Shown piece after piece: positions 12,462 to 64,000 of a stretch of DNA of 64,000 bases. The notes below the pieces were generated by a model. It did not search any database and was not told the DNA's origin. It saw only the letters and a program-made list of their open reading frames with translations. Source of the stretch: Psammoneis japonica (taxonomy: Eukaryota); contig QPGO01000033.1 in the NCBI GenBank assembly GCA_008632985.1, positions 248,001-312,000 of the forward strand. The letters are read 5' to 3'. Numbering within the stretch: position 1 is the stretch's first letter; each line of letters opens with the position of its first letter. A program made the position numbers and the translations under genes.

Positions 12462-12621
12462 GGTTCGATCCGTGTCTCTCTTGAAAGATGCGGGTCGAAC
12501 AAAAAATGAGACCAAAATGGCAGGAAAGCGAAAAGCGGTCCTAATACGTTTTCTACTTACACAGTTTTCAGTATTCGTTTTACTTGCTTTCGTCACGTAC
12601 GCACGCATTCTTCATTTTTCT

Positions 12622-16573: not shown

Positions 16574-18825
16574 TAAATCTTGTTCAACGCTGATTTGTAT
16601 TGATCAGCACCAGCCCGGCAATTTTCCATTTCGTCATTGGGTAAGAAGACGCGAAACTCGACGTTCTTTGGGAAGTCGAACAAGTCGCATTCTAAACTGC
16701 GCTTTGACGTGCCTTTGAAGTAGGTAGATTTGGGTCCGGTTAGGTAACTTTCTACGCATCTGGGCACCGTGGCAATGTAGACAATCAGCAACTGATGTTC
16801 GGGTATACCAAGACTATTGCGCAGCTGCTGGTATACTTGAAAATACTTCGGGTGCGTGGGAGATACAGTGCATTGAGCAGTGGAAATGGGAGGAGGGGGC
16901 GTCTGAGTGCCAAGCTCCTCGTCAAGCCACAGCAGGTCAACAAAAGGGTAGCTCGTATCTGATGGCTGGTAAAGTACGTCACGCTTCATTTGCGATGCTT
17001 TGGGGGCTGGGCATCGAGACACTTTGCTCCTCTTCACAGTAAGAAAAACCTGTCTGGTTGACAATTCTTTCGTTTCCGATGGCTCGGCCTCTGTATAGAA
17101 TGTCAGCTTGCTGTGGCCATAGCCCCAAAGGAGACCGGTAGGACTGATTATGTACTTCTTGAGGAGAGTTCCTAGCGCCTTGGGATTGCATCCATCGTCT
17201 TCAGTTTCATTTTCGTAGTCGAACCATATTATCTCTCGCAGTCTTGTCAAGCGAGTCCAACTGGTTTTTTGAATACTACTGAATACGAAGAAAAGCAGTA
17301 TCAGAAGAAGGCACAAGTACCTTGCTCGTGTGGTCCCCTTGCGTTGCTTGACGGACGTGAATTGGGCGTTATGCATCGTGCACATCGGTGCAACGGATTC
17401 GGTTCTGTCGCTGTTTCACATGACTCGATCGTGCGCAAAGCGGCATTGGCGGTTTGAAGTGACATGGTTTGAATTAGTCCGGCGGTGTCCTTGACATAGG
17501 AATCACAAGTCGGTTGATTCAAAAGCAAAATTCGAAGAAAGGGCCCTGCTCAAGCTCGCACCTCTTACGAACCACATCGACAAAAGAGTTCAATTCACCT
17601 TGGTCCATGCCAGATTGGAAGCCACAGATGTGCCGCACGACAGCTTTGATCTCTGACCAGGTTGGGCACGACACAATGTGAGGCATCACTTTGGCCTGCT
17701 TGAGGCATTCCTTGCAGCGGACGAGGAGGGGCGAGAGCGCTGCTGCTGCACAGGGCATGTCGCCATTCGTCTGGATGGAATGAGGTGCAGGTTCGAAGCT
17801 TGCGGCAGGCTCGTGTGGCATTCAAACACAGCAATCCGTGGACAAGCTGTTTGGAGTCGCAAGCACACCAAGAGACTCAAACATGTGAGCCACTTTGTCT
17901 TGAAGAAAATGGACAAAAATGGCAAAAACGTCACTTTCACGGCAGACAAAAGCAACAACTTTGGGTTGACTGGGAACTTGCTCTTCTCCAGTCAAAGCTT
18001 TCCACACATCAGAGTTTGCAGCCATGATGAGACACTTCCACAAATGCCATGACTTCGAGATGCCCGGATTTCCCACAACTGCTGAGCGCAACCTCATGAC
18101 CTCGGTGCCACCTGGTTCTGCAATGGGGCTGCTCCATGCTTTGACAAGACCGATGTCTTTGTTTCTCACAAACAACTTGTTGCTTCAAGCCTCATTGCGC
18201 TGCAAAGAAGGGTTGTCAACCGGCAGCTGAATCATCGTGATCCTGTCGTCTGCGGCTTCCTCTTCTGCAGGGAACTCCACCTCAAAAACTGACATGGAAC
18301 TCTCCGTCATTGTTGGCCAGTTCCAGTGGGTGCAGTTGACAGGTGCAAGGACCTCCACTTTTGCATCAGCTGCCATGTGCAAAAAGTTGCTTCATTCCCA
18401 GCCAGCACTTGGGTTTTGACTCGCACAAGATTCCCATGCGCCGCTGGCAGCACCGTAAAAAAAGAAGGTCTTTTTGCAACACCACTCACCAGCTGCTGAT
18501 GCTGTTGGATCTTAAAAATGTCGACAAAGCCACAGAGTTCACCTTGCTGGAGATCTTCATCTGGCTGTGTGTGAGGCATCCACAGCTGCAACAATGCTGC
18601 AGTGGCATCTGGGTGAGAATGCAATTTGATTCGACCGAGTGGCCTGGGTTCACTCCCAAAGAAGGAGGAGTTTATTTTCTCCTTCAAGGACTTGATGGTG
18701 CATTGCTCGCCATCACCGAAGCTTTGTGGGCTCTCCTCATCTTCAAGACCATTCACAGCACAGTGTGTCCCACCGCTGTTCTGCAGCAATTCAACGAAAC
18801 GCACTGCAAAGTCATTTGAGGACAT
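16537..18825 (-). pseudogene. Crinkler/RHS-like P-loop NTPase plus restriction-endonuclease-like gene, frameshifted
   Basis: Minus-strand pieces in order: header-like TIKSLKEKI; MFVR...AVVGNPGISKS (degenerate Walker A); C-terminal LYQPSDTSYPFVD...AQCTVSPTHP (PD-(D/E)XK-like). Split across several frames. Confidence 0.55.
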
Positions 18826-18829
18826 CGTG

Positions 18830-21800: not shown

Positions 21801-21890
21801 TAGACCCTCTGCCAAAGCACAGAGCTCATGATCATTTTGGATGATTTTAGATCAATTCTGGAGCTCAACCCCATCGCACAACAACTTTTC
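18830..21890. mobile_element. Degenerate TpA-depleted block (family not recognised), with a purine-rich GAAAA tract at 21652-21716
   Basis: Rare TA survivors almost all in TTA/TAA; Tyr-free Cys/His/Gln-rich pseudo-ORFs. Confidence 0.4.
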
Positions 21891-21896
21891 TGCAGC

Positions 21897-22195
21897 TGCA
21901 GCGCACACGTTTTTTAAGATGCACCAGCATCATCACACGGAGCCAAACACTGAAGCACCATCAGCACCGTCCATTCTGAGTTTTCTAGACACACATCCAC
22001 CTGGTGTTGAGCGCCATGAACCATTGGTGTTGGCAAGCAATGAGGAAAATGTGAGCAAGTGTGAAGACTCGACCTGTGCTTCGATCGGAGCTCGAATCAA
22101 GGGATTGATGGCATCCAACAATGCAAACTGAATGTCACATGATATTATTGTTTCATAACAGACGTTGAATTTTTGGCGGGAAGTTTTTTGGATAT
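21897..22195 (+). pseudogene. Duplicated 3' end and 3' flank of the OMA1-like gene
   Basis: Aligns to 15823-16112 (FFKMHQHH...EAPSAPSILSFLDTHPP...IGARIKGLMAS). No upstream exon is present. Confidence 0.92.
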
Positions 22196-28898: not shown

Positions 28899-29320
28899 TC
28901 ATTTTTTGTTAGTTTGATGTTCAAACCCCAGTCGATCCAAAACTTCTCCGATTCAAGCTTCCCCTTTGCTAATCGTATCCAGAACTTAGCCCACAAAATT
29001 CAGTCGAAAGCATTCCCCCTAAAACATGTCCACGTTCACGTCTACTGTAGCACGTTCAAAGAAAGCATTTCCCCAAACAGTCGTTTGGTCCAGCTGGTCA
29101 ATGGCCCACTCATGGTGTGACCCAATGTTTTTTGGTGTCTTGGACTGGATTGTCAAGCTCACCTTCCTCTGACCCCACACCAGATCTCCAACCCATGCCA
29201 CTCTCATTGGAGAGCAAGGAGTCACCTTCAAGAACTGGTGGACAAGCTTTTCCTTGTTGACTGAGACTGAACAAAAAATGGTTTCTGTTAAAGAACCGCT
29301 CAGCAGAAGTGTTTGTGACT

Positions 29321-29321
29321 G

Positions 29322-29361
<40 letters not shown>
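29321..29361. repeat. (GCT/CTG)n microsatellite
   Basis: gtgctgctgctg... about 12 units. Confidence 0.9.
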
Positions 29362-29364
<3 letters not shown>

Positions 29365-29954
29365 CAAGGAGGAGCAGCACTGCACAGCTGTCAGGTGAAG
29401 ATTTGGCAAGATGTGCCTTTCCTTTTTTGATGGATGGTCTCCCGAGCTTTGTCGTTTTTCCCCAGACAAGCAGTCTGCAGATCTGTAACAGCAAAGTTGG
29501 TCAGCCCAGCCCAGGCAGGAGCATTGCATCTTCGCTGATTTTTCCCATGAGTGCAGCACTCCCCAGCCAACCTCACTCCAGCCCTGCACTGTGATGGGGC
29601 TCTTTCTGCCTCAAACAGATGAACATCCCACTTGAACCCAAAATTCAACTGGATGTCATGGTTGAGTCAACAAGACGACACCCAAGGATGCCCTGTGCTT
29701 GTCCTCCTTTGCAACCCTGCACACTGCTCTTCTTGACATCGCTTCATGCTGCCACCAGCATTTGCAGTTGAGCTGCTCCTGAAGACAGCATCTTTGCCCC
29801 CCCCCCCCCCCCCCATGCCAGCAGCAACTTTTCTGACAGCCCTCCACACCGCTGGTGGAAGCTCCAGAAATGTTCACATTTAGCCGCGCCATTCTTGTTG
29901 GAGTGGCCATGACTTTTAAAATGTTGGACTCACTGCTGCTGCCAAAGATGTTGC

Positions 29955-30509
29955 CCATGGTTGCCTTTTCTTCACACATGCAAGAGAAGTTTGTGCAGAG
30001 AAGCATGAGGGTGGCAGCAGAAGGAGGCACCGAACAGAGGCATGGAACAGACTGTTGGGGTGGAGGAAAGCAGAGCAGAAGGAGGAGCGCATGTCATCAT
30101 CATGGTGCAACCCATGGTTGCCTCTTCTTCACACACGTGCAAGAGAAGTTTGTGCAGAGAAGCATGAGGAGCAGCAGAAGGAGGCATTGAACAGACTGTT
30201 GGGGTGGAGGAAAGCAGAGCAGAAGGAGGAGCACATGTCGTCATCATGATGCAGCCCATGGCTGCCTCTTCTTCACACACATGCAAGAGAAGTTTGTGTT
30301 GAGAAGCATGAGGGCAGCAGAAGGAGGCACGGAACAGACTGTCGGGGTGGAGGAAAGCAGAGGTGGAAGGAGGAGCGTGTGTCGCCATCATGATGCAACC
30401 CATGGCTGCCTCTTCTTCACACACATGCAAGAGAAGTTTGTGTTGAGAAGCATGGGGGGCAGCAGAAGGAGGCACTGAACAGACTGTCGGGGCAGAGGAA
30501 AGCAGAGGA
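29955..30509. repeat. Minisatellite, ~145-bp unit, 3 full copies plus 1 partial
   Basis: Units begin ccatgg(t/c)tgcct...cacatgcaagagaagtttgtg at ~29955, 30111, 30256 and 30399. Confidence 0.9.
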
Positions 30510-31989
30510 GCAGAGTGCAACATGCAGCCACCAATGAGAGTCAACGCATCATGGCGATGTGTTGCAGCCTCCAAATGTCACAAAGGGCGTGACAAAAACA
30601 GCCTTTTGCCTGCATGCATGCTGCATTGTGAATTCACAGCGGAGTGGTTCATCGCAACCATTGGGCAAGAGGCCAGGGGTTCAAAACCCTGAGTGGGAGT
30701 TGTCTGCAGCAACGTTGATCACTGTCGAACGCGCAAAACTCTGTGCAGTTCTGCATGTTCCTTCATGCGCACCCACACTGTTCCGCCAAAACCGTGCAGT
30801 GTCAGCGCACGTCAGCAAAGAGCCGTGTGGATGCGCGACACATGGGGAGGAGTGCAACACACAGCCACCAACGAGAGTCAACACATCACGGCGACTTGTT
30901 GCAGCCTTTAAATGTCACAAAGGGCGTGACAAAAACCAGGCCTGCGGGGAGCATTGACCACTTGTCTTTCTTTGTGGGTGTGGGTGCATGTGTGCCGTTG
31001 CGTGCTGCATTGCCTGTACGTGCGCAGGGCCCTGCCGCCGGGGCCGGCATTGTGGCGGCTGAGTGGCGTGGCCACCGCACCGGTGACGCGGATGACCGTT
31101 GTGTTTGATGTCTCATGCCATTTTTGGGGCTGTGGCGAGGTGCACGGACACTCTTTTTTTTCCAATTTATTGCCGTAATGGCGCATCGCACAAACTCACT
31201 TGTTGTTCGACATGTTTTCCCCAACATGACTTTTTCGTGTAGAATTCACGACAAATTGTCTTTGTGCACAACTGAGTGCATTTTTGAACATGCCACGCCG
31301 GCAATCCCAATTTTTCAGAACTTTCGAGCTCTCCTAAAAAACCGTGCCACACACCCGTCGCAGGGAATTTGTCGATTTTTTAGGATGTCCCCACAACCTC
31401 TCATGTCCTCAATGATCATTCTGCGAATCCGAAGAATTCATCTGCACCAAACAACCCATGCCCTTTCAAAATCCAAGGGACACACTTTCAAATTCAGACG
31501 GACAACCCAACTGCCCGACCCCCTGACTGCCCGACTGCCCGACTGCCTGACTGCCGGACCGACACGAAAAAGTCTGCAATCACCAACCACTGAGTGGTCA
31601 ATGACAACCTTTTGTCTGCGTGCATGCTGCAAGAAGGAGGAGAGTGCATGTCATCGCCATGATGCAAGGTCAAGAGTGTGCAGGGTGTTTTGCAGATGGG
31701 ATGGGTGTACGAAGGGTAGAAAAGAACCGAAGAGCATGGGTGGAAAGGTGGCAAATGATGTTGTAGCTCAAGGTTTGCGTCGCCCATTGGGAAGGGGGGA
31801 AGGACTGGCAGGTGCTGCCGAAGCGATTGTCCTGAATGATCTCGCATCTTTTGCCGTTGGGCGGCCAGCTCCGCGCGACGCGACTGGAAAAATGTGGCAC
31901 GCCCGATCGCCATCGATCGCCGCAAAGACCCAAGACAACAACATGGACAGCCTATTTCAAAAAGAAAGAGCAAAGCAATAATAACCATC

Positions 31990-41692: not shown

Positions 41693-42079
41693 CTAAGGGA
41701 ACTCATCATGCTGAGGAAGGTCGGCGGGAAGAATATCCTGGTTTCCTTTATCCTTGCAAAAGATGTGACAAGTGGGCTTGACACGTGGCTCTAGGGTTCC
41801 AAGAGGAACCACCATGGATCCGTCGGGAAGAACCTTGTAGCAAAAACTTCCACAGTCCTTGCAAGAGTTACGAAAGACGCTTTGGTTCTTGGTAAACTTG
41901 ATGAGATTATCGTCTCCCTTGATCACTTTGAAATTGTCGGGTTTCCAGACACCCAGCTGCATGGCGGATCCTGTTTGCGCGCGGCACATTCCGCAGTGAC
42001 ACCACACCGCCAGTTCCGCATCTCCAGTGACCTGGCCTTCGAAATTTTCGCACATGCACTTCCAGTTTCGCGTCGTCAT
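41693..42079 (-). CDS. GFA/CENP-V family zinc-binding protein
   Basis: CMC, WCHCGMCR, CKDCGS and PTCHIF patterns. Confidence 0.85.
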   Translation of the reverse strand: MTTRNWKCMCENFEGQVTGDAELAVWCHCGMCRAQTGSAMQLGVWKPDNFKVIKGDDNLIKFTKNQSVFRNSCKDCGSFCYKVLPDGSMVVPLGTLEPRVKPTCHIFCKDKGNQDILPADLPQHDEFP

Positions 42080-42189
42080 GGTACCTGAAAAGATGCTTCT
42101 GCTGTGAATAGGAACGAAGAGAGCAAAATTACCGGTACCGGTATGACGATGTCTTGACGTCGACGATCTTTGTTCTTAGTGCGAAGTAC

Positions 42190-44590
42190 GTCTGTGACGA
42201 CACGCAATCTGCTTTTCGGTTGAAGTTTGCCAGTTTGTCCCTCTGCTTGTGTCTGTGTCAGTTTGTCGGCCGCGGCGCCGAGCTCTGCGTCCAAAACAAC
42301 TCGCGCTGGTTGTGTCTCGAATGGTCATGCCCTAACGTGGCCGAGATCAATTGCAGTGTTGCAGGGCTGCATGAGGCAATTACATGTGTTCCTGGTCAGC
42401 GTCAAATGGATTTTCGTGGGGGGGGGGGGGGGGGGGCAGTGCCGTGCCAGAAAGCAGCTTTGTGTTTTGAGGCCCCGCACACAGTGCAGCAGGGAATGGC
42501 TCATGCCAAGAAAAATTGCCTTGCTTGCTGCCATGCAAAAAAGTTGGGAGTGAGAAAAAAATGTCTGTCTGAGAAAGTTGATTTTCAGCCCCCAGCAACA
42601 ATTTGAGTTGGTGCTCCTGCTGACTTCCAGGGTCAAGAGTGGTGCACGACGAGACAGCCTCGCCAACGCTGCCCCCCGCCCTGCCTCTGCCGCAGCAATG
42701 TGCGAGCATGGTGTGCTGAGCTGCTGTTCTCTTCCAGCAAGTGCTGGTGCACATTGTCTGACAAGCTTGACTTGCTGGCAGCTGTGGGGGAGTGTGGGTG
42801 TGAACAAGCCAAGGGCACACCAAAACTTGCTGAGCTTTGGTCTGTCGCAGAGCTGCAAAATTCTTGTCCACCAGAGCTGCCAAAAAAGGGGGTCTCACAC
42901 AGGAAAGAGAACCAGTCTCTTTTTGAAATCACTTGGTGATGATGAACACCCATGCAAGGCAATGTCTTCTAAAGCAACAAGCCATGATCACCCAGTCAAA
43001 AACTCATCTTGCAACCAAGAAAGAAAGTGCTGAGCTTGCATGCCAGCCAACAAAAGAGCTGCTCTTGTTGACCAAGAGCTGGCTTGTGCCCCCAAGCAGC
43101 ACAGCTTGCAGCAAGGGTGTGTGCAGCAAGCTGCACTTGACACAGATTTGTCAAGAGCAGTTTGGTTGATGAGCACTGCTTTGAGAAGTTTTGAACAAAT
43201 GTCTGCAATGTGTTCAGAGGATTTGGCAATGGAGCAATGCAGTTTGTGTGTGTCAGCTCATTTCCTTGGCCAGTTGTTGAGCATTTCCTTCAGTGCAGGC
43301 ACTTGTGCCTGACAAACCATTTTTTGAACCTGGCTTTGAACCAAACCAAGACAATGGCAAAAAAATGTTCACAATCACTTTCTTGAGGGAGCAGACACCA
43401 AATGTTGCCAGCACATCTTGTGAGTGCCTGAAACACAAGAAACAAGTCAGGCCAAGGGAGAAGGGAGGAAAAGCCACCAAGACTCAACAAAAAGAGACCA
43501 GCACAAAACACAAGAAATTCAAAAGGCTGCATGCAAGAAAGACAGCACAGAGTGTGGGTCCAGACAGAGAACACACTGCACTTGCAAGACTCATCTGACA
43601 GCACATCAAAAGGTGTGAAAGCCATTGACATCAGCAACTTTGCAAGGTGTGTGCCACACCATTCCCTGAAACCTTTGTGGCACTGTGGTGAACAAAACAC
43701 CCGCCAAGCAAAAAGCTGAGCTGATTTGAGAAAGGAGCAGGTGAGGGAACATCAGCAGCAGGAACAAGCAAAACCTTCTCAAAATGGGCAATGACTTGAG
43801 AGCATTCTTGCGGTTGAAACCTGGCTGCCATGACTCTGACTGATGCAGATGATGGCAGCATGTTGCAACATCTGCAACATGTGCTGCCAGCCACTTGCTG
43901 CCGGGACAAATGGGGCTGGCAGATTGCCACTTGGTTCAGAGGATTGGACTCCCACACCTGATTTTTGATTTTGCAACACTCAGCCAAGCAGTCTCTTGTT
44001 GCATGATTGACGAAAAACAAGGATCTTTCTGATTGCATCTCAATGAAGGGGTCAAAAAAATCAGCTCTGCAAATTTGCACAGGTGCATCACTGAGGCAAA
44101 CCAAGGGGGGAGGGACATTTCTTTCTCCAACAGAAGCTTTTGGTGCTCAGAGGATTTGATCCACAGAAGAGGGCGGCGTCAACCCCTTGCTTGACGCCAT
44201 TTTTGAGAGTGTCAAATGTGTGTCATGTGGCGGCACTCAGAGAACTCAGCATTCCCATGCCCAAGACACTGCTGCTCAGCCAAATGAAGATGTCAAACAT
44301 GTTCTCAGCTGGGTGGGCAAGTGTGTGCCGACAAATGTGTGTGGTGCTGCAGGAGGAGCTTGCAAAGTGCCAATCATGAGCTCCAAAAAAATGACTGCTG
44401 GGTGGCACAAACCAAAAAATCTCCCGACTTTTTTCTCTGTGCAGCAACCTCGGTGAAGATTGGGGTCTTCTATTTCTTGCTTTGCGGGACTTGCCGCGTC
44501 CCAAATTTTGGTTTCCACGGTTCACGTTTCCTTCGAGTCACGAACTCATGATGAATCACTCCTCGAACGGTTGATCGAGGAGGTCGGCAT
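42190..44590. mobile_element. Degenerate TpA- and CpG-depleted block with poly-G at 42418-42436
   Basis: About 4 TA in ~2.4 kb; Tyr-free pseudo-ORFs; family not recognised. Confidence 0.45.
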
Positions 44591-48477: not shown

Positions 48478-51400
48478 AGTCCAGTCCCTCGCGAGTTTTG
48501 AAAATTGTGAGAATGGCGAACAATGCGAAAAAGTGGCGGTGCAAGATTGAAGTGGCCTCTTTGACACGAGTGACTCTAAATCGGATCGGCATTTGCTAAA
48601 AATTTTGTGATGTGCCATTTTCAAATAATCCAACGCACATAACTCGGAAACTATCGGAAAGAAGAATCAACCGTTTAACAGATCTTAATGTTGCCAATAA
48701 TCTCAACTATATATATGCCTTTGAATACTCTCATATTATTAAAAAAATTTTCAACAATTGGATCGCATTCTTATTGTGACAAATGTCTCCTCTAATTAGT
48801 ACAATGGAAATTTTGGTTGATTATTCGGGAATGAATAAATCGCTCCAATTATATTTTTAACGAAATGATTAACCAGTTGAACAACAACATTATTTCAAAC
48901 TTCTTTCTCAACCGACAGACGCCATCGCTGTGATTTTCGACAAAACGCTCATAACCCATAAAATCAATGTTTCTTCATCCTTCATCCAAAACGCAGACAC
49001 GCGACGCAACTCAAGTCGACCATGAGATCGGTTGCGGCGGCGGCAATATTTAACACCAAGTGTAAGAAACACCTGGACAGTATGTTAAAACCTCATTATG
49101 ATCATAAGGTAAGGGTGCTAAAGCAAGAAATCTTCATTTGATGCCTTTAATCGTCATCTGAACTTTTCACTCAATTTCTTTGTGTCTTCTGCATCCGACA
49201 CGACAGCAAATGTTTTGAAGGTGTACAGTGGAATGTATTATGCAGGTACCCATGACTTGGACGATATATTCGATAAAGGTGACATAGAAAGTCACAAGCT
49301 CTTTCTTTGGCAGTGTTTTCCGTGTCAAAAACAAAAGCAAGCGCGGCAATCCTTGCTGTCACGATCATTTTCGACAATCAAATCGGCTCAATGTCTACAT
49401 TAAACCATCCAAAAGTTTCAACCTACGCCTCACACTCCTCCCTCTATGCCTAAATGAGACGATCCTGGGTGGTTGTCAGAAGTCAAGAATCCATGCGAGT
49501 TCCTGAGGAGCCGCAAGCAGTTGGACCTCTGATCCTGTGAATGCACCAGCTCCAACCAAATCGATGCGGAGCACAGCTTAAATTGTTCACATTGTCTGCA
49601 AAGATGCTTTTTTATGCGGTCAATGCTTCTTAAGATCGGGATCAAACTGTAGAAAACACTGCCAGTGACTGGTAATTGACGACAGCTGGCCGGAACCCTT
49701 TTTACGGACACCCATTTTCATCATTTTGAGTGCACGGAACGATGCGTAGTTTGTCAACAATGTAGATTTAAGGCTTGACAATGGTCCAGGAAGCATCCAC
49801 TACATAGAAGGACATTGAATATGAGTAGTGGCAAGAGTCAACAAAAACAATAAGTGCCATTGAAGCCCAAAAGTGGATTTGATCCGGAACTTGGTGAGCG
49901 CAAGCAGTTCTCTCTTGAAGGCTCCAAGCGCTAGAAATCATCACTTCAATGATAAGAATAGATTATAAATGCGTAATATGATAAATTAGCATGGACTAGT
50001 GCTTAGAATTGCTGGTTAAAACCAGGAGTCGTCTCCTACATTGCAAATTGTCTCCGGTGGTAGATTGGCAGATTTGTGGGTCCACCAGCTTGCGGGTTCT
50101 CACGTCCTTGAATTGCTCTTTTGTTTCCTTGTCTTGCCCATAGTAGCTTCCTTTATTACATGAAGGGGCTCTCTAATTCCTTGAACAACCCCTCCTCATG
50201 AATTTCTTGGCATTCTGAGTCGATCAGGCGGTTGCGACAGGACTAAGGCGACGGATGCACTTGTGGATGAGCTCTTGTTTTCAGCTCAGCATCACCTCCC
50301 ACAACAGTCAGGATATTTTCTCCTTCATCTCGATCATAAATATCGACGAATGAACGTTATCCCATACCACACCTTCTATGTTGAACCTTGAGAACGTCGC
50401 CTGAAGTTGTCGGAAGCAGCGACATCGGGTGAAACAAGTGGGCGGCAGCAAAAGTCTTTTTTTCGCTCTGCAAGTGGCAAAAGTCGCAATGTTTTTAGAT
50501 GGAACGATAGTCATATAAGTTAATGATGAGATACAATCGAAACATTGCGAGTTTTGACCCAATGACACAAGCAGTAACGTTCTTACCGATGAACGGCGAC
50601 TCACCATTTTCGTTCCGTAACTTTTACGCATTTTTTGCACTGGGAATTGTGGGAGGCAGATCTGAATTTCGGCCCAAAAAAAAGAAGGAAGGAGCGGCTT
50701 TTCAGCACTGCCGTAGAATCTACGTGCAAGATGACGTCACAGTACAAAATGCCATTTCTACGCAGCGGTGGCCGCTCCGCGAGCGTCGTGTATAGCCGTA
50801 GGCCCGGTACATTGTCTGTTCTTCCATCCGCTACAGAAAAATCATACGAGACATTGTGTAGAGTGTCATCTCATAACCTTTTCAACTTTTCAGCACCTCA
50901 CATTTTTTTCTTTCCGAGCAACATCAACATGAAAAACTCACATCGCTTCTTCCTTTGGATGAAACGATCATACAGCAGGACATGTGTTTGTACGATGCTC
51001 GCAATGTTTTGGGTCCCACACGCGCTCAAGTGATTTTTTGAAGGGCTCGTCTCAGCCAAGAGTCGCCACACAGAAACAACAGTTCAGTTGCTCAGTCCGA
51101 CATGGAGTCTTTGGGTGCTTTGTTGGAGCGAGCATGAGTCGCCCGAGGTGGTGGTGAAGGTGATGGTGGTTTCGTCGAAGGGGACACCAGGGGCTTGGCC
51201 GTGCTTTGCACAGATGGATTCGGTGATGGCGGCGGTGCTGGGTGGGTGTCTTTGCAGGACTTGTGGCGTCAGAGGTTGGGCGGAGGGAGGTGTGTGCGGC
51301 ATTGCTGCGTTTGCATTGGCACAGATGGCGTCATTGATGGCGACGTTGACGCAGGCGGTGTTGTTGTCTCTGGATCTGGAGCAGCCGGCAATTCAGCCAG

Positions 51401-52167
51401 CGGCACTGGCGCAAGTGGGGACACTTGGCGGCGATTGCGCTGGCAGCATGTTGGAGTCATCGCTGACGGCTGACGGCGGAGGCGGTGTTGTGCCGGCAGG
51501 AGCAGGCATCATTTCAGTCTGTGGTGTTGGAGTCGACCACATTGATGCAGACCTCATTGAAGCTGCCTGGGAGGTGTTGGATGTTGGCAGCGAAGGATGG
51601 CTGTGCGGGACTTGTCGTTGGAGGTCGGAGGGAGAGTTGGGTTCGGCATTGCGGCGGCATTGGGTGGCAGTCTGTGTGGGATTTGGTGTCGGAACTAGAC
51701 AGAGTGAACAGCCCACTGGTTTTCTTAAAAGCAACTTGAATGCTGCAGTCTGCTTTGTGCAAAACCAGGGTGCCAGATCATTTCAGGAATGCAGGTTGGT
51801 CACACGGACTGGCTGCCTTAGCTACGAACACCTGCTTCTGTCACAATGTGTGTGACAGAGAGGTGCAATCCAAACGGCGAGGCGTGAAACGCATGCGAGA
51901 GCATGCTGCAACACTGTCATGGATCGGCTTAGACACCATTGCCACAAAATGTGAGAGTGCGTCATTTGCATCGCCACCAAGAAGATTGATGATGACACAC
52001 ACGGCAGTCTGGATGACACATTTCGGAAATGACATGATTGAAGAATTCTCGGCATTGGACAAACACATTCAAGATTCACTTGTTCATAAAAAGGAAACGA
52101 CTTGATCTGTTGATTCTCAAGGCATGACAACCACAACAACGTGGATTGCTGCCAGTGCAAATGATGA

Positions 52168-52443
52168 TGACAGGATTTGAACAGGATTTGGGTGCGCGCG
52201 AAATGTCGCGCGCTGTTCAGTTTACCGCGCACAGTTTTGTGTGCTTTAGTTCCGCACGTTCGCGCGCGATGTAGTTTGCTTTTGAGCCACAAGGCTCACA
52301 AGAACAATGACAGCAGCCCGATTGCACCGACTTGCACGTCTTTCGGCTCCTGCAACGGTCTCTGAGCGGAGACTCATCTGCCATTTAGACAGCAGTGAGG
52401 AGTTGTTGTTTGAATTCTTGCCATTTGCCTTCAATTTCTGTCA
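52168..52443 (+). repeat. 5' LTR
   Basis: Direct repeat of 59000-59277 with TG...CA termini. Confidence 0.95.
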
Positions 52444-53382
52444 GATTGACAGTCTTGCTCATTGTCAACCCATTGAGCAACCGCCATCATCGTCGTTGAT
52501 TTACCAACGACGCCATTTCAATTCTGCGTGGACCTCCGCATGTGTTCTACACACATCGGCAAGTCTACGCGCATTCAATGCCAGGGCATCGGCAGGAAGT
52601 TAACGTCACCGTCAAGTCTCTGTGCCGCTGGATGTCTGGATTGATCATGCTGCCTTTGGTCGCTGAAGACACACATTCAACGGTCACATCCAAGTCTGTC
52701 CTTGATCCTCATCCCTTCGTGTGCCTGTTCATCGGTTGACGGTCAAGAACCCTGCACATTCAAGGATCTTCGTCGCTGAAGACACATGCATGTGCACATG
52801 TCTTCACGGCCAAGAACCTGTGCCCACTCTTCGGACTGCGGTTTTGCCACCACTCTACAAGCACACCGAGTCCATTGCACCTGATCTGCCCCGGACTGCT
52901 GGTGCTCCACAGTTCTGCCAGGTCCACGAGGACGACTGTGAGAGCAAGCAGCCGTGATTGCAGCCTGCGTTGGGGCGAGGGTGCTTTCCCGCGTTTGTTC
53001 GTTCGTCCACAGTGCCTGACGCCTGCGTCAACTGGCCAGCCTGATCGGGAAATCCAACCAATGTAAAATGAGAACGGTTCGGGGGTCTTGTCCACCTCCA
53101 GTCAGCTCACCTGCAGGGGATTGCAACCCGCCACTCCGCTCGCAAGCAACCCAAAGCGCCGCTGGCTGCGGGTTCGGACGTGCCGGCACAACTCTGCGGA
53201 CCGGATGGGAAGTTTAGCACTTGACAACGAATGGGACAGCAAAGCCCGGCGACTTCTGATTTTAAGACAGTTCAAGATTTCAAGTCAAGCACATTTCAAG
53301 TCAAGTCAATTCTCACCCAAGCTTCAAGTCCACCTTCGCTTCCCAACAAGAATTGCTTGTCCTGACACCACTTTTGTCTGCC

Positions 53383-56300
53383 ATGGTTCTCACCCGTCAG
53401 CAACAAACCGATGGTTTCGAGCATGTTGTTGGAACCGTGCTTGCCCAAGGTGCTGGGAGCCCTCTCCGTTTGGCTTTGGCACAAGACGGCACGGACTCGC
53501 ATCAAGAACTGTTCACGTTCACACCGTCCCAAATCGACTCGCTTGAGTGCGACAACGGCGCTAATGTGATCCCTTTGCCCCGTGGTTATAAGAACATGTT
53601 AGCAGCTCTGGTCAGTCTGTGCATTGTCAAAGCACACAAAGGTCTTGATGTTGCCAATGACTTCTCGTTGTTCATGCATGACGAGTTCCTTGCCCACCGC
53701 CTCAGCCCCGACTGCATGTCTTCTGTGTCCATCGGCAGCTCACCCCTCGCACCTCTGCATGTCACCAACCCGACCAAGGCACGTGACCCGGTGCGGGACT
53801 TCAAGCAAGGCATCAAGCGTGATCCCACCGCTTTCACGGCTCTCAAATCTGACAAGCAGTGGCACACTTGGCACACCTCACTTGTGGCACAAGCCCGTGC
53901 CCAAGATGTCGAGTGCATTCTAGACTCGTCGTACAAACCGACCAGCCCCGAAGACAAACTGCTCTTTGCTGAACAGCAAAAGCACATGTTCGCCGTCTTC
54001 GAACGCATCCTTCTCACTGACAAGGGCAAGGCTCTCATCCGCGAAAATGTGGGGTCTTCTGACACACAGACCGTCTGCCGCGCCTTGTCTGAGTGCGCGC
54101 TCGCCTCCACCCGCGCATCTGTCGAGTCCTCCACCCTGCTGACGCACCTTGCCACCGCACGTCTTGGTGATGGCACTTGGAAAGGTCCAACCCACGGGTT
54201 CATCCTTCATTGGCAAGATCAGTTGCGCAAGCACGAGGCACTCATCCCGGCCAGTGACCACTTCTCTGAAGGACAGAAGCGTGTCATGCTCGAGAATGCC
54301 GTGCACCCTGTCGAGGAACTCCGTGCTGTCAAGAACCAAGCTGATCAGCATCGCACGCAGAGTGGCAAGAGCCTCACACATGATCAATGCTGTGGCTTGC
54401 TCCTCTCCGCGGCAGCCCAATGCGACAGTGCGTTTCAACCCAAGACGACACCTCGAGCTCCCCACCGCTCCATGTGCGCACACGACGTCTGCTCCGAGGA
54501 ACCGTCCGACGATGTGTTCTGCGACATTGACAGTGACATTGACGTCCTTCAGGCCAATGCTGCCTGCACCCGTGGTCCCAGCCTCACCGGTGACCAATGG
54601 AAACATCTCCCTCCCGACCACCAACGGATTTGGGATTCGTTGCCCCATTCCTCCAAGGCGATCATCCTTGAGCATTCTCGTCCGCCTCCCCGCAACCCGC
54701 GAGACAGCAACCACCATGAGTCCGTTGCGGCCAACCTTCACGACCAATGCCTTGGGAGTGACGGTGATGTCAACTTGTCCAACACGCCTCCTGCTGACTC
54801 TGGTGACTCCGCTCCAAATGTGGGTGCCACTTCGGACAATCCCATCCTGGCGCACCTCACCAAGCGCAAGCCACTGCCACCCGGTGATCTGCACCGTCTG
54901 TTGTCTCCTAACCAAGCCCCCAATGCCAGTCGACCGGGGCCATCCGCCGCTCCCTCTACCCTGCCAGCTTGTGCCGATGACATGGAACTTAACGGCTGCA
55001 CTTGCCGCCGCGTCAATGACCACAATGTCATTTGCTCTGCCTCTGCTCATCGCTCCACACGCACTGGCGCTCTAGTTGATCGTGGGGCCAACGGTGGCAT
55101 TGCTGGCGACGACATTCGCGTCATTGCACGCACCTCTCGCCACGTCGACGTTCAGGGCATTGACGACCATCAATTGGTGGACATCCCCATTGTCACCGCT
55201 GGTGCCGTCATTGAGACCCAGCATGGTCCCGTCATCGCCATCCTCCATCAGTGCGCACACGCGGGAAAGGGCAAGACCATCCATTCCTGCGGCCATCTCG
55301 AATGGCACAAACAGGATGTCAACGATCGCTCTGTCAAGGTGCCCAACGGCTTGCAACGTGTTGCCACTCCTGATGGCCATGTCATCCCCATTGACATCAA
55401 GGCCGGCCTGCCTTGTGTTGCCATGCGACCTTGCACTGATGCCGAATGGGACACCCTGCCCCATGTCATCCTCGCCGGTGATGACACATGGGATCCTTCC
55501 ATCCTCGATCACTCTGTCACTGATGACGACCAGTGGCATGACGCGATCTCTGACCTGCAGGACGATCCCACTGCCAACCTGTTTGACGAATGCGGCAACT
55601 GCCGTCATCGTGTCGTTGTCAACGAGACCATCATGTCCGCTTCCTTGTCTGCCGATCACGCGTCCGCCCTCGATGATCACCTCATTCCGAATGACGACGT
55701 GTTCTGCGAGTGTCATCTGCACGTGATTGACCCCAAGGACGACGACGTCCCGCCCCCGGAGCGCACTGTGCAGCCCAAGGACCCGCCCTTCGAGTCTCTT
55801 TGGCCCCACTTTGGCTTCCCACCTGCCGATGCGGTCCGTCGCACTTTTGACTGCACCACGCAGTGTGCCCACATGCCCGCCGGTGCACACCTTGGGAAGG
55901 CCTGCAAATCACCCAACCCCGCCCTTAATGTGCACCGCCGCAACGAGCCTGTCGCCACTGACACCGTTCATGCCGACACCCCGGCCGTCGACTCTGGCTG
56001 CACCAGTGCCCAACTGTTTGTTGGCACCGAGTCTACCGTCACTGACGTCTGCGGCACCAAGATGGACAAAGAGTTTGTCAACACACTCGAGGATCAGATC
56101 CGTGAGCGTGGTGCCCCATCCAAACTCATTGGCGACCGTGCTCAAGTTGAGATCAGCAACAAAGTGCTCGGGATCCTGCAGGCCCTCTTCATCTCCAGCT
56201 GGCAAAGTGAGCCTCACCAGCAACACCAAAACTTTGCCGAGCGTCGACACCAGACCGTGAAGCGCATGGCGAACACTGTCATGGATCGTTTTGGTTCGCC

Positions 56301-59052
56301 CGCCCACACATGGCTGCTGGCGCTCATGCATGTGTGCTTCACACTCAACCACACAGCGTCCCCACGTCTCCACTGGCGCACACCCCTCGAGACTCTCACT
56401 GGCTCCACCCCGGACATCAGCCCATTGCTTCGCTTTCACTGGTGGGAACCCGTGTGCTTCCACCTCGATGACTCCGATTGGCCGTCCGAATCCCGTGAGT
56501 TGCGTGGACGCTTCGTTGGCATTGCTGAGCACGTCGGCCACCAGATGACCTTCAAGATTCTCTCTGATGAGACTCAGAAGATCCTCTGCCGGTCCAACGT
56601 CCGCTCTGCTGCCACCGATCCTGCCGTTCGAAACCTGCGTCTTGATCCTCCTGATGGGGAGCCACCTGAACCCATCATCAAATCTCGCCATGACGACAAC
56701 CCCGTCGATTCTCCTGATGGGGAGATCAGGACACCCAAGATGCCAGTTTTTGATCCGCAAGACATCATTGGACGTGCCTTCCTCATGCAGCCACAAGAGG
56801 ACGGACAACGCCACAGAGCTCGCATCGTCAAGGCCGTCGAAGACCACGAATGGAAAGTGAACGGCAATCCCGAGCTCACTGAGTTTGTCTGCTCTGTCAA
56901 CAATGACGAATGCGAGGAAGTCCTTGCCTGCAATGACATCATGAATCACATTGAGCAAGAAGACGAAGACACTGCCATTTGGAAATTTCGACGCATCGTG
57001 TCACACGAAGGACCTCTGAAGCCTCACGACCCAACCTGGAAAGGCTCAAGCTACAACATCATGCTTGAATGGGAAAGTGGGGAGATCACGTCCGAGCCTC
57101 TTGCCATCATCGCCAAGGACGACCCCGTCACCTGCGCCATCTGTGCACGAGAGAACGGACTCCTCGACACGGATGGCTGGAAGCGGTTCCGCACCATCGC
57201 GAGGCGCCAAAAGAAGCCATTTCGCATGGCCAACCAAGCCAAGCTTCGCTCCTTCTGCACTGCACCTCGCTGCAAGTGCGGATGCGAAGTTCCCCGGAAC
57301 TGCAAACACGCCATGTCACTGGACGAACGCAATGGCAACCGCAAATGGGGAGACGCAACTAATCTCGAGATGGACCAACTCGACGAATACGAAGTCTTCC
57401 ATGACTGCGGGCCCTTCGAGTCTTCCACTCCTCCTGCGGGACACAAGAAGATCCGAGTGCACCTGGTGTGCGACGTGAAACACGACGGTCGCCACAAGGC
57501 ACGACTCGCAGCCGACGGGCACCTCACGGACGTGCCTGTCGACAGTGTCCACTCTGGAGTGGTCTCCCTCCGTGGCCTTCGGCTGATGATTTTCTTGGCC
57601 GAACTCAACGAGTTGGAGACATGGGCCACCGACATTGGCAATGCCTGCCTTGAAGCCACCACCAAGGAGAAGCTTTACATTGCAGCTGGACCCAAATTTG
57701 GCAAACTCGAAGGACACATCCTTGTCATCCACAAGGCCCTGCATGGACTGCGCAGCTCCAGTCTCCGCTGGCACGAGCGCTTCGCCGACTGCCTGCGAGC
57801 TGAAGGCTTCTTCCCCTGCCGCGCTGAACCCGACATTTGGATGCGCAGGAACGGCGACCACTGTGAACACATTGCCGTTCATGTGGATGACCTCGCCATT
57901 GCCATGAAGGACCCTCAATCTTTCGTCGACACTCTCACGGAAAAGCACAAGTTCAAGCTCAAGGGTGCGGGACCCATTGAGTTCCATCTGGGTTGCGACT
58001 TTTCCCGGGACCCCGACGGAACCTTGTGCCTGTCTCCGCACAAGTACATCAAGCGCATGGTCGACAGCTGCGCCCGACCGTTTGGGGAGAAACCTGCCAC
58101 CAACGTCCTGTCACCTCTGGAGAAGGGTGACCACCCCGAACTGGACACTTCCGAACTGCTGGGACCCGATGGCATTCACAAGTTCCAGTCTCTTGTTGGT
58201 TCACTCCAATGGGCAGTGTCCCTTGGTCGAATTGACATTGCCACGGCCATCATGTCACTCTCTAGCTTCCGAGCTGCACCCCGTCAAGGCCACTTGGATC
58301 GTGCCAAACGCGTCTGTGGGCACCTCTCCAAGATGCGACACGGCGCTCTCCGCGTTCGCACGGAAGAGCCCGACTGTTCGGATCTCCCTGCTCCGGCCTG
58401 TGAATGGATGCATTCCGTGTGCGGCGAAGCAGAAGAGATGATCCCGAAGGACGCTCCACTGCCCCTTGGCAAGTTCGTCACTGCCACCCACTACGTCGAT
58501 GCAAACTTGCACCATTGCATGCTCGCCGGACGCTCTGTCATGGGAATGCTCCACTTCCTCAACAAATTCCCAGCTGATTGGTTCTCTAAGAAGCAAGCCA
58601 CCGTGGAGACTGCGACCTGCGGGTCTGAATTTGTTGCCACAAGGACTTGTGTCGAGCAGATTGTTGACCTGTGCATCACCCTGCGCTGCCTTGGCGTCCC
58701 GATCCGCAATGTCAGTTACATGTTCGGTGACAACAAGTCGGTTGTAGACAGTGCCACCATCCCGCACTCCAAGTTACACAAGCGACACACCGCACTGTCG
58801 TTCCACCGTGTGCGTGAGGCAATTGCCTCTGGTCACCTTGAGTTCCACTTCATCGAAGGCTCCCGTAACCCTGCTGACATCCTCAGCAAGCATTGGGGTT
58901 GCTCCCAAATCTGGGACCTTCTCCGCCCCCTCATGTTCTGGAACTTCATTTCATCCGAAGTCGAATCTGTTTCTGTGACTCCTCAAGCAAACTGGGGAGT
59001 GACAGGATTTGAACAGGATTTGGGTGCGCGCGAAATGTCGCACGCTGTTTAG
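53383..59052 (+). pseudogene. Copia gag-pol polyprotein, open but probably inactivated by Tyr>His/Cys substitutions
   Basis: Protease LVDRGANGG; integrase ATDTV...D...SEPHQQHQNFAERR; RT HKARLAADG, DIGNACL, KALHGL and HVDD; RNase H KKQATVETATCGSEF, GDNKSV and NPADILSK. Confidence 0.92.
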
Positions 59053-59277
59053 TTTGCCACGCACAGTTTTGTGTGCTTTGGTTCCGCGCGTTCGCGCACG
59101 ACACGCAGCTTGCCTTCGAGCCACAAGGCTCACAAGAATGACAACAGTGGCCCGATTGCACCGACTTGCACGTCTTTCGGCTCCTGCAACGGTCTCTGAG
59201 TGGAGACTCATCTGCCATTTAGACAGCAGCAAGGAGTTGTTGTTTGAATTCTTGCCATTTGCCTTCAATTTCTGTCA
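59000..59277 (+). repeat. 3' LTR
   Basis: Direct repeat of 52168-52443. Confidence 0.95.
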
Positions 59278-61190
59278 GATGATGCTGCCAGTTTGCTGGC
59301 ATGCCGGCAGGCTGCTGTTGCGAATCCAGCAAAAGGAGTCATGATCAATTTGAAGCAACCATTGTTTTTCTTAAAACTGTTCAATGCATGTGTCAATGAT
59401 GGGAGAACCTCTTGCGATGGGGTCTTTGGCTCGTCACTCGCACTCTGTCGGAGGCAGCAAATGGCACAAAAATGAGGTTGACTCACTCAAATGTAAAAAA
59501 CACAACTCAAATGGAGTTTGGGAAGCGGAGCCGCCAAACAGGAACCTTTTTGTGGGTATAAGAAAGACATTCATGCCCCGATTCCGCTTCCCATGTCAAC
59601 ATTGAGGCCACCGCAATCGACACAGTCATCATGGTGGGACGGTGTGTTTCGCCGTGCAAAAAGCACGGGAGTGTCGGAAGGGTGGACGAACACCGGGCAG
59701 AATATTTGAGTCGAAGTATTCGAGCTATAAGGTCCCTCCACGTAGGGCCTTTCACGCACATGGTGTCTCGCTCTTCCGAATTGCAATGAGTTATTGGACA
59801 TCGCTCCTTGCCTGTCGCCAAATTTCTTCTCGTGTGTCGTGTAAAGCATCGCATATATTATAATATATGGTCACGGGAAATAAAACGCACCGTGTCTTGT
59901 TTCTGCGTCACCAAGAGAAAGGAGAACCACGTTGTTGTTCGTCCAATCACTTGTTCCGTGTCAGGGCCGCAATCCCATCATGAATCATGAAAATCTCCGA
60001 CAGCGCAGTGACCCGGCAACACAAGAAAAAGCATCACGACTTGACGCGTGGAGCGTGATCATATCGCTGACGAAGTCGATCAAAGCCATCTCTCGAGCTA
60101 GCAGAAAGATGCGTGCTGTTACTGACCTTCGTAACGCGTTTCGCAGTGTGCTCTTGCGAGATGCGATTGCAGCAGAATTCGGCATTCGGCGTTTCACTTC
60201 GGCACTAAAAATATCGTGATTTAGCTTGGAGGGAATGAGAAACGTTTTCATGGACGCAACGACGAATAGGTCCGAACATATGCTCGTGCGGAACCGGCTT
60301 TTGCTGCTAAAGATATTTCAGACTCACTGACACTCATCAGAGCAGAGCGTTTCATGGCGTCCTTCGTCTCTTACCAAGATGGTGCGTGAAATCAAATACA
60401 ACAAAAATATGACAACTCTAGATAGCGCTGTCCCTGTTTGGTTATTTGTTCGTCAGACAGTTTTTTTTATACCGTATAAAGCTCCAGCGTAGCAGTAGTA
60501 ACTCAAACGACATTTTAAATAATGAACACGTACCACGCGAAATGTGCCTCTTTCGTCCTTTCATTCGTAGCACAGGTGTGCCCCACCTGCAGTTATCGAT
60601 AGGACCCATGAGATTCTTTCTTTTCTCAAGCTTATTTTCGGTGTTATTGTTCATCTGAGCGTCTTATCCACATTGTTGCAGCGACTGTTAGGAAAAGATA
60701 AATTCCACTAATATTTGCGCGACAACGCGATGCAGATAACGAAGCTCGTTATTGACAACCAATGCCCTAACGTAGCTTCTGGATTTGCTGAGAAGGAGTG
60801 GCACAACTTTGATGGTACACCTCTCTTTGCGAACGACAGCTCTAGCATGAAAAAAGAACGCGGTGGTGGTGCTCTAGTATCGCTTGCATGAAATGTGTGC
60901 ACACCAACAAAACCGAAAAATACTCGCAAGTTGTTGCACCTTGGTTGCTCCGACAACAGCTAGAGGTAAAAGAAAGAAAACGATTACCCAACAACTGGCG
61001 TCCACGAATCAAAACGGAAAAGTTTTACGCAAAAGTACCTAAATAGAGCGGTCTCACTCACTAGCAGAAGCACAACCTCGAGCGAGAAAATCCAAGCTCA
61101 CATTACACCCGTCACAAACAATGAGAACATGTCCCCCTTGTTACAGACTCTCGTAGAGCAGCAGCAAAGGATGAATTGTGCCAAATCTCC

Positions 61191-61889: not shown

Positions 61890-64000
61890 TCTGCTGGAGG
61901 ATGACACTTGGCATGCCACCCAAAACACCACTTTGACCACTCCGCCAATTCCCGTGGCCCGCATCATCTGACTCCACTGATCGTCGTCATCATTGAGCAG
62001 AGGACAGTTCTTTTTCACCTGCCCAACCTTGTCACATTTCCAGCATTTGATCTGCTTCTTCTTGCTTCTTGTTTTGCACAAAACTCACGCCTGCCCAAGC
62101 AAGGCTCGTTGCTTGTCAGCATGCAAAGGAGCAGAACCCTCTTGAATGAACCCAAGTTCTCAAAGGACAGAATGAATGCACAAGACCCATTTGGCAGTGG
62201 CACCAGCAGCACAGACCTTGGCTTCAGCAGAACTCACAGCAGTCACCACCTGTGTCTTGCAGCGATGCAAGGCAGCAGCACCACCAGCCAACATGAGGGC
62301 ATGCCCAGCAGCGGGGTGCTGATTGCAAAGGGCAGCAGCTCCACATGTGACATCCAAGAAAGCATGGAGTTGAGTGAGAGTCAGAGGATGGGAGCTGGGG
62401 CAAGGAATCTTCAAACTCAAGTTGCTCAAAAAGGAGCAGCAACGGCAATGTGTGATCCTTGGCAGGCTTCTTGCAGCTGATGCCCCAATGCTTCGTGCAA
62501 CACAGATGCTGGGTGCAACACCTTTCAATGCCATGCAATGTGTCAAGGCTGGGTCAGAGGCAAACTTTGACAATGTGGCAATTGTGTGCCCAGTGTCAAG
62601 GTGGCAGATGACATGTGCACCAAGCAATTCACCAAGCAGGTTGTGACACCCGACACCCAAAACCTTGTGCTTCTGCCAGCTCAGCATGACTGGGGGCGCC
62701 TTTTGCAGGCCAACATCAGAGTGCAACTTGGAACCAAACTCAACAAGGAGAGGAGCAGCCTGGAAATCAGAGCCCAACTCATCTGCAACAGGTTTCAACC
62801 CAGCAATGCAGCCATGACAAGCAACGGAAGTGTGGTCATTGCGCCGGTGGACATCCACACCATTGAACTCAGCACAGAGCCCCAAATGCTTCAAAGGCAT
62901 TTCATCCTTGCCAGGGAGTCACAGTGGCTCACCAATCAAATTTTGAATCTTGATGGCAAATGATTCCTCCAGGCATGCAACTGAGAAGTCATCAACCTGT
63001 TGGAGGAGGAGAGCATGACACTTGCCATCAAAAGTCCCACAATGGGTGCACTTGTCATGAGCAGCACTCCAAAAAAGGAGTTTTGCATCTGCCAATGTTG
63101 TGCTGATGCGATTCTCCCACAGAGCACTGGACTCAGGGTGCCCCTGCAGAGCATGAAGGATGTCAGCAGTGCCGCAGATTGGCCCAGGTCAGTCTGGGCA
63201 CCAAAGTGGTCCTTGCACCATGTGGCATGGGCTTCATCTGCTTGGATGCAAACAGGGGCTGAGGGATGCAGGGAGTGGGCACACCCATTTCAGGCATTGC
63301 CAGAGTGGAGCCAGCAACTCAGAAACTAAGAGCACAAAAAACAGCCATTGAACAGGTTGTTCCATGCAAGAAGAATGGGCACACTGCAGGCAATGCAAAG
63401 CAGGAGCCGCTTGAGGAGATCCATCACAACAGCATTGAGAACAACGTGTGTCATCTGTCTTGATGTTGTGTTGCCAGTGGAGTTGCAATGCAACAGCACC
63501 TTGTGGATGGGGTGTTGGAGCACCAAACATTCCAAGTGCAGCTGTGAAAGTGATCAAGTTGCTTGAATTCAGCATTGTGCCAAAGGGGCCAAAATCTTGT
63601 GAGGTGCTGCAGGCAATTCCAAGTGAAGCCATCCAGCTCTTGTTCCTCTGGGTCACTGCAGACATGCAAGGGTGTGTTTTCAACTTGGGCGGTGCACTGT
63701 GAGGACAATTTGAGAGGTTCTCTGTGCATTTCTGTGAGACACACATTTTTGGCACCACTGACAGCATTGAGCTCCTGTGTGGCAATGGAGCGTGACATCT
63801 GCAACACCAGCACTTGACTCACATCTCCAGATGTGCAAGGTGTTCTTGAAATGAAGCATGCTGTGTCATTGTTGGGGTTTTCAAGGTCAGAAGAGCAAAA
63901 CGTCATTGTTGCATTGCTGTCTGTGTGGGCTTCATTCTTGGCACAAAAAAGTTGGGTTGGCAACAACTTCTGCTTCACCAACACACCTGGTGTGCCACGT
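61890..64000 (-). mobile_element. Highly degenerate second copia element (RT-RNase H remnants), joined to a zinc-knuckle fragment; continues past the window end
   Basis: Minus-strand remnants HWQHNIKTDDTRCSQCCCDGS, FNGVDV, IATLSKFASDPA, KTQVVTAVSSAEA and CWKCDKVGQVKKNCP. Frameshifted; one TA seen in ~2 kb. Confidence 0.8.

Follow-up and report, generated by a model that had tools for sequence, protein, structure and literature searches.

Hypermutation of TpA dinucleotides to CpA or TpG has so far been described only in a 2026 preprint on Bigelowiella natans, an alga unrelated to the one considered here. Of the 302 nuclear single-nucleotide mutations recorded in mutation-accumulation lines of B. 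natans, 231 fell in integrated giant-virus and virophage regions, and 230 of these 231 were A-to-G or T-to-C changes, all on TpA (Mettrop et al., bioRxiv 10.64898/2026.01.13.699255). According to the main text of the preprint, the hypermutation exceeded background ~1000-fold and was confined to some lines, TpA-poor coding sequences were enriched in reverse-transcriptase and DDE domains, and an ADAT2-like DNA adenine deaminase was proposed as the agent (bioRxiv 10.64898/2026.01.13.699255). In diatoms, CpG methylation of long terminal repeat (LTR) elements has been reported, with no mention of a TpA process in the available text of the two papers concerned (PMC2806351, PMC9998398); the literature searched, which left subscription journals outside its scope, yielded no report of the TpA signature in this group. 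The present analysis concerns a Ty1/copia LTR retrotransposon at 52168-59277 of a 64,000-nt stretch of Psammoneis japonica DNA (contig QPGO01000033.1, positions 248,001 to 312,000), hereafter the window. The sequence suggests, with a probability of about three in four, that two context-specific processes, a fast one at TpA and a slow one at CpG, introduced transitions into this element in place, on the chromosome.

The retrotransposon is complete and occupies exactly the interval assigned to it by the initial annotation. Two direct repeats, 6.8 kb apart and alignable over 276 and 278 nt, bound it on the forward strand: the 5′ LTR at 52168-52443, with TG..CA ends, and the 3′ LTR at 59000-59277. 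Both LTRs start with TGACAG and end with CTGTCA, and they are enclosed by a target-site duplication, GATGA, that reads identically at 52163-52167 and 59278-59282. The ends at 52446 and 59280 returned by the repeat finder overshoot the LTRs by three bases that are identical by chance.

Alignment of the two LTRs (92.5% identity) yields 21 transitions, no transversions, and a single 2-nt indel (two gap columns). Nineteen of the substitutions lie inside a pyrimidine–purine (YpR) step common to both LTRs, an excess over the ~52% of LTR positions that such steps cover (binomial p 1.6e-4), while the remaining two are C/T differences preceding T. The 21:0 transition spectrum differs from that of the duplicated ATPase genes of the window, which is 50:13 (Fisher p 0.03). 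By state in the 5′ and 3′ LTR, there are 19 CA/CA, 21 TG/TG, 16 CG/CG, and one TA/TA site on the unchanged side; the variable side comprises four sites with TA against CA or TG, seven with CG against CA or TG, and four that are reciprocal, CA in one LTR and TG in the other. Four TA survive in the 5′ LTR, one of them common to the 3′ LTR, which holds two. Ordinary CpG-to-TpG/CpA change is a second process; it explains about one-third of the LTR differences, and CG is involved at 7 of the 17 variable YpR sites. Moment estimates put the loss per LTR at ~0.67 for TA sites, ~0.18 for CG sites, and ~0.0075 for non-YpR positions. The divergence K is 0.076 over all sites versus 0.015 over non-YpR sites, so an age calculated from LTR divergence would be inflated about fivefold.

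These results reproduce the description given in the initial annotation, namely that all LTR differences bar one 2-nt indel are transitions, nearly all of them in TA, CA, TG, or CG dinucleotides; every example pair it quoted is present as written, and its warning that LTR dating would overestimate the age of the element now has a figure attached. Its derivation of the reciprocal CA/TG swaps from an ancestral TA is supported. A two-hit grid posterior assigns an expected 3.2 of the four sites to TA, with a probability of 0.93 that at least two came from TA and of 0.018 that all four came from CG, and the direction of change is confirmed outside the LTRs; what does not stand is the merging of CpG decay with the TpA process.

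Because the LTRs alone fit both a path from CG through CA/TG to TA and a path from TA to CA/TG, the direction was read from the coding region. An open frame of 1928 codons (53266-59052, forward strand), a gag-pol remnant rather than a working gene, fills the interior and ends inside the 3′ LTR. Conserved columns were defined as those with the same residue in at least 80% of 23 aligned relatives, which gave 719 columns and, in this copy, 86 substitutions. Reverting CA/TG to TA undoes 38 of them (20 Tyr-to-Cys, 10 Tyr-to-His, and 8 others) and reverting CA/TG to CG undoes 14; another single transition accounts for 6, and none of these changes for 28. Cys or His occupies 30 of the 37 conserved Tyr columns in this copy and 0-2 in each of the 23 relatives under the same test. 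A looser threshold gives 45 of 58 Tyr columns (29 Tyr-to-Cys, 16 Tyr-to-His), and ~79% of the conserved Tyr TA dinucleotides in the interior are lost. The Tyr content of the frame is accordingly 0.41% versus 3.0-4.4% in 120 relatives, and the reverse-transcriptase motif reads HVDD here versus the YVDD consensus of the relatives.

Dinucleotide composition points the same way. The observed/expected ratio of TpA, the measure used for all dinucleotide values below, is 0.11 in the element interior, and the median of the other 1-kb windows is 0.54; in the part homologous to a metagenomic relative, L001, the ratio is 0.10, with 0.60 in the DNA of L001 itself. The element has a GC content of 57% versus ~46% in its flanks. 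Related copies provide a further view. Four sequencing runs, all from the same study and from the only sample that contains this DNA, gave contigs in which transitions make up 382 of 429 variant places; the family is very abundant there, with thousands of related contigs at 85-99% likeness. Among the best 40 of 440 places, a selected subset, the copies have TA where the element has CA/TG at 21 and CG where the element has CA/TG at 9; three show CA/TG against CG in the element, one shows CA against TA in the element, and six are other changes. Taken together, the Tyr losses, the reversions at conserved columns, the depletion of TpA, and the same-sample copies support TA as the ancestral state at most of the changed sites, with a smaller component of CpG decay alongside.

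Three tests agree in pointing to a preference of the process for an adenine followed by a pyrimidine, that is, 5′-TAY-3′ (Y, pyrimidine; R, purine). These are (i) the Tyr codons, which became CA in 4 and TG in 21 cases after a 5′ pyrimidine, and CA in 12 and TG in 9 after a 5′ purine (Fisher p 0.005), (ii) the 21 TA sites polarised by the same-sample copies in the subset of 40 places, 19 of which were hit in 5′-TAY-3′ (p 2e-4), and (iii) the 38 surviving TA, which divide into 17 YTAR, 18 mixed, and 3 RTAY against expectations of ~9.4, 19.1, and 9.4 (p 0.005). TAG is the poorest context. The native substrate of TadA and the early adenine base editors show a preference for YAC, which is a lead and not a test.

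Several features place the mutations on chromosomal DNA. Differences within an LTR pair must have arisen after the synthesis of that pair. Each LTR carries A-to-G as well as T-to-C changes of its own, so both strands were hit in both LTRs, which does not fit the editing of RNA or of single-stranded complementary DNA (cDNA). The intact, matching 5-bp duplication argues against a recombinant element. The hypermutated domain, moreover, extends from 51001 to ~59600 and takes in flanks that do not belong to the element: the left part of a host repeat (51001-52162), where TpA drops from 14 to 0 per 300 bp at ~51000, and its right part (59283-59600), with normal TpA from ~59600 on. These flanks recur joined to each other without the element in same-sample contigs, with 10 to 17 letter differences over ~140 to 160 nt, which shows that the element sits within an older repeat. 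An internally polarised example of the process outside retroelement DNA is a duplicate of the 3′ terminal part of an M48 peptidase gene (21903-22131, forward strand), which lies at the edge of a different island, 6 kb downstream of its parent (15827-16053). Five of the six TA and 4 of the 11 CG of the unmutated parent are CA/TG in this copy, and the pair additionally differs by four transversions and six gap columns. From the LTR-specific hits on both strands, the mutated flanks, and the mutated M48 copy together, we infer that DNA already integrated was the substrate, and the loss estimates for the LTRs and the interior agree with an origin in place for nearly all of the damage. The central propositions of the initial annotation, an independent mutation of the two LTRs after insertion and a direction from TA to CA/TG, are supported, as are its argument against RNA editing and its use of the GATGA duplication against an inter-element recombinant.

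The same signature recurs across the 64-kb window. TpA falls below 0.2 in 21 of 64 one-kb windows, and its Spearman correlation with CpA+TpG is −0.85. Islands nearly devoid of both TpA and CpG, with CpA+TpG of 1.5 to 2.0, lie at 1-2000, 7001-8000, 18001-22000, 29001-31000, 42001-44000, and 62001-64000; the CpA+TpG ratio is 1.7 or more in all of them except window 42001-43000. The island at 1-2000 retains 2 TA and 7 CG beside 215 CA and 232 TG. For CpG, the median is 0.22 in the low-TpA windows that lie outside the element, versus 0.90 elsewhere, and the element itself has 0.85. Both palindromic YpR steps have given way to CA/TG in the old islands; the losses of the young element up to now concern mainly TA. 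None of 94 stop-to-stop frames of at least 90 aa from the islands matched a Pfam family above its curated cut-off, and 28 long frames of the window returned host genes only.

Duplication as such does not appear to be what draws the process. Two tandem copies of a gene for a P-type cation ATPase (2950-6237 and 9178-12465; 98.1% identity over 3288 bp) are not hypermutated: they keep 76 shared TA and differ mostly at third codon positions, and the hypermutated island at ~7001-8000 sits between them. Since these duplicates were left unattacked, duplication by itself is not the trigger, with the caveat that purifying selection acts on the ATPase genes. Another island contains, at 29947-30513 and 30513-30936, a tandem array with a period of ~144 bp, the units of which are 68-89% alike, together with a dispersed 87-nt pair. 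In these and in a 110-nt pair, the differences are mostly transitions, with 2/8 to 7/17 of the substitutions in YpR steps; such repeats are too old and saturated to add weight.

The remainder of the window is gene-dense with few introns. Genic 1-kb windows outside the islands have a median TpA of only 0.54, which could reflect codon usage or a low-level action of the TpA process on genes. Two genes bear on the identity of the host. A folate dehydrogenase/cyclohydrolase frame has its best named matches, at 62-69% identity, in diatoms (Eucampia, Attheya, Coscinodiscus, Chaetoceros, Cyclotella, Thalassiosira, and others); Closterium, at 54% identity, is the sole named match outside the diatoms, and none is near-identical. 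An importin frame has three matches among longer proteins, of which the xanthophyte Tribonema minus, at 38% identity, is the only named long relative. An atlas search with one host gene gave COQ6-like clusters, which do not resolve the taxonomy.

The copy is dead despite its frame of 1928 codons. A-to-G and T-to-C changes create no stop codon, so the openness of the frame is no evidence of function; of the two processes, only CpG decay can produce a stop, through CGA to TGA. For TAA as for TAG, the density is 1.55 per kb in the element and 5.6-8.9 per kb in genic stretches. The frame opens 39 codons ahead of the Met of its relatives and overruns their C-termini into the 3′ LTR: homology to the family begins at Met residue 40 (53383), which is the start in 21 of the 23 relatives, and these end mostly at residues 1901-1918. 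Further open frames of 200-380 codons run on both strands of the element. DNA of this kind, from which TAA and TAG have been erased, could be mis-called as genes.

The only Pfam domain in the frame is RVT_2, the Ty1/copia-type reverse transcriptase, at residues 1390-1601 (57433-58068, forward strand; PF07727, E 5.7e-23, 82.2 bits versus a cut-off of 31.6). For the integrase upstream of it, a Pfam search at E up to 1 gave RVT_2 alone in this copy and in two unmutated relatives. A short purine run that adjoins the 3′ LTR, GGGGAG at 58994-58999 (forward strand), is a weak candidate for the polypurine tract. The protein collection contains 1351 relatives of the frame at E 0.001 or better, the closest of which, at 58-71% identity, lie on contigs of ~7 kb. 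Searches with tblastn, using two relatives as queries, found no second copy of the family in the window, and a metagenome scan with the element protein gave one distant relative, L001 (47% identity), which was without LTRs. The reverse transcriptase–RNase H region of the latter (L001:1-2352) is strongly depleted in CpG (0.24) with ordinary TpA; its host evidently has CpG decay without the TpA process.

The most likely course of events would start with a Ty1/copia element that inserted, probably intact, into an older repeat of the nuclear DNA of its host, a diatom-like stramenopile. A fast process would then have converted TpA to TpG or CpA (A:T to G:C on either strand), preferably in 5′-TAY-3′ and only within repeat islands, the edges of which are sharper than 300 bp, while a slow process, presumably the ordinary decay of methylated CpG, produced further TpG and CpA. 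Independent hits on the two LTRs would leave the three kinds of site that are found, that is, TA against CA/TG, CG against CA/TG, and the reciprocal CA against TG. The agent of the fast process may be a TadA/ADAT-like deaminase that acts on DNA adenine and is recruited to silenced, cytosine-methylated chromatin, a tentative assignment that falls somewhat short of even odds. More speculative is the broader suggestion that diatoms possess a chromatin-targeted DNA adenine-editing defence at 5′-TAY-3′ in silenced repeats, homologous to or convergent with the Bigelowiella system and widespread in the stramenopiles, alveolates, and Rhizaria (SAR).

The same strand-symmetric signature would also result from a lesion on thymine, since an A in TAY is a T in RTA on the opposite strand. 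A TET/JBP-type oxidation of T at 5′-RTA-3′ to a base resembling 5-hydroxymethyluracil (5hmU) could mispair with G and give T-to-C changes, and 5hmU in dinoflagellates is found preferentially at TpA. The window holds no sign of such a modification or enzyme, and the sole proposal published for the signature, as given in the main text of the preprint, is adenine deamination (bioRxiv 10.64898/2026.01.13.699255), which makes a thymine lesion unlikely. The LTRs could also have come to differ through gene conversion or recombination, with other members of the family, mutated in other ways, as partners, and the thousands of related same-sample contigs would offer donors. This origin is improbable: the matching GATGA duplications exclude a simple inter-element recombinant, the differences are scattered single YpR sites without linked tracts (two non-YpR differences in 276 nt), and the states of any donor copies would likewise have been acquired on the chromosome. 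As a separate matter, GC-biased gene conversion was ruled out, since AA, AT, and TT steps in the element are not depleted (observed/expected 1.10, 0.98, and 1.02).

Changes made before integration, by ADAR-like editing of RNA or by deaminase editing of single-stranded cDNA, are highly improbable. Editing of cDNA can in principle give LTR-specific changes, but it should confine A-to-G to the 5′ LTR and T-to-C to the 3′ LTR; only 5 of 12 derived events fit this prediction, no better than chance. RNA editing predicts identical LTRs and sense A-to-G only, in conflict with the 17 variable YpR sites and with Tyr-to-His changes beside Tyr-to-Cys. ADARs prefer a 3′ G, and TAG is the context least used here. 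The preprint does record that ADAR favours U before the edited A (bioRxiv 10.64898/2026.01.13.699255), a preference that matches the TpA step; non-retroelement DNA is mutated as well. An assembly artefact, in which a long-read base-caller misread modified bases in the islands (5-methylcytosine at CpG, modified A or T at TpA) as transitions, would account for changes at both palindromic YpR steps and for their restriction to repeat islands. It is nonetheless most implausible, because TA loss is near-total at 1-2000, old copies carry transversions and indels too, the stretch has 3431 same-sample contig matches of at least 99%, and the B. natans signature came from Illumina data (bioRxiv 10.64898/2026.01.13.699255). 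Next to no probability attaches to an origin of all changes in CpG, whereby cytosines on both strands would be deaminated and TA would be the final state, whether through methylcytosine decay or in the manner of repeat-induced point mutation (RIP). The CG/CA/TG/TA lattice of the LTRs alone is formally compatible with it, and CpG decay is real at this locus, but TpA is depleted tenfold instead of enriched, family-conserved Tyr codons (TAY) became Cys or His, and GC content rose.

For mutation in place by a TpA and a CpG process, and for the adenine deaminase attached to it, a number of points count on the other side. The window points to no enzyme and no DNA modification, and an A lesion in TAY and a T lesion in RTA are indistinguishable from sequence alone. 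Placement of the host by sequence as an ochrophyte stramenopile, most likely a diatom and not Bigelowiella, depends on the two genes described above. The sequencing runs are probably the data of the assembly itself and hence do not lend independent support. Ancestral TA at the four reciprocal LTR sites comes from the two-hit model and not from site-by-site polarisation, and the TAY context is found at only 2 of the 4 LTR sites with TA kept in one LTR. Finally, position 52325, the only LTR site among the best 40 of 440 variant places, is CA in both LTRs and TA in most same-sample copies, which could be a parallel hit or a change that preceded insertion.

If confirmed, TpA-directed A:T-to-G:C hypermutation of selfish DNA would be present in two eukaryotic lineages, the second of them ecologically dominant, and its reach would extend from integrated viruses to LTR retrotransposons. 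For diatom genomics, LTR-divergence ages would be inflated to the extent estimated here, hypermutated elements would keep long open frames on two strands as TAA and TAG vanish and might be called genes, and repeat islands would turn GC-richer and escape recognition by domain searches. Testable handles on the enzyme and its targeting come from the preference for TAY and from the co-occurrence of CpG decay. Should the adenine-editing defence prove real, transposons would be erased without stop codons, and the enzyme behind it would amount to a naturally occurring base editor for DNA adenine.

Among known systems, fungal RIP resembles the process in being defence-like, in introducing context-specific transitions that kill transposon copies in place, and in skewing dinucleotide frequencies. 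RIP, however, changes C to T and raises TpA, whereas here A:T becomes G:C, TpA is depleted, and Tyr codons are lost; the TpA process makes no stop codons, and RIP attacks any long duplicate, whereas the 3288-bp ATPase duplicates are spared, subject to the caveat on selection. Decay of methylated CpG accounts for the CG versus CA/TG differences between the LTRs and for the loss of CpG in the older islands, and the polarised CG-to-TG/CA changes (14 of 86 substitutions, 9 of the 40 selected places, and 7 LTR sites) are presumably due to 5-methylcytosine. It cannot, however, turn TA into CA or TG, which is the dominant change in the element. Pre-integration editing by ADAR or APOBEC enzymes shares the clustered, context-dependent transitions in retroelement copies but acts on RNA or cDNA, on one strand, and leaves identical LTRs, unlike the two-strand changes, mutated non-retroelement DNA, and differing LTRs found here.

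The closest counterpart is the B. natans system, for which the preprint directly establishes the kind of process and its chromosomal location, albeit in another lineage. Both systems show nearly exclusive A-to-G and T-to-C change at TpA, on both strands and on integrated foreign DNA, and local depletion of TpA with enrichment of CpA and TpG; the numeric cut-offs of the paper hold for its own genome and have no part in this comparison. They differ in host (a chlorarachniophyte versus a diatom-like stramenopile), in target (giant-virus and virophage inserts versus an LTR retrotransposon and unclassifiable repeat islands), and in depth, with TpA at 0.45 in the region derived from a nucleocytoplasmic large DNA virus (NCLDV) versus a far deeper 0.0-0.17 here. 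De novo events were observed in the B. natans lines, whereas the timing at this locus is deduced from the LTRs. CpG decay coincides with the TpA process here and TAY is preferred, whereas the words CpG, trinucleotide, retrotransposon, and diatom have no occurrence in the main text of the preprint. What the present case adds is a different host lineage and an LTR retrotransposon as the target, together with the deeper depletion, the preference for TAY, and the link to CpG decay.

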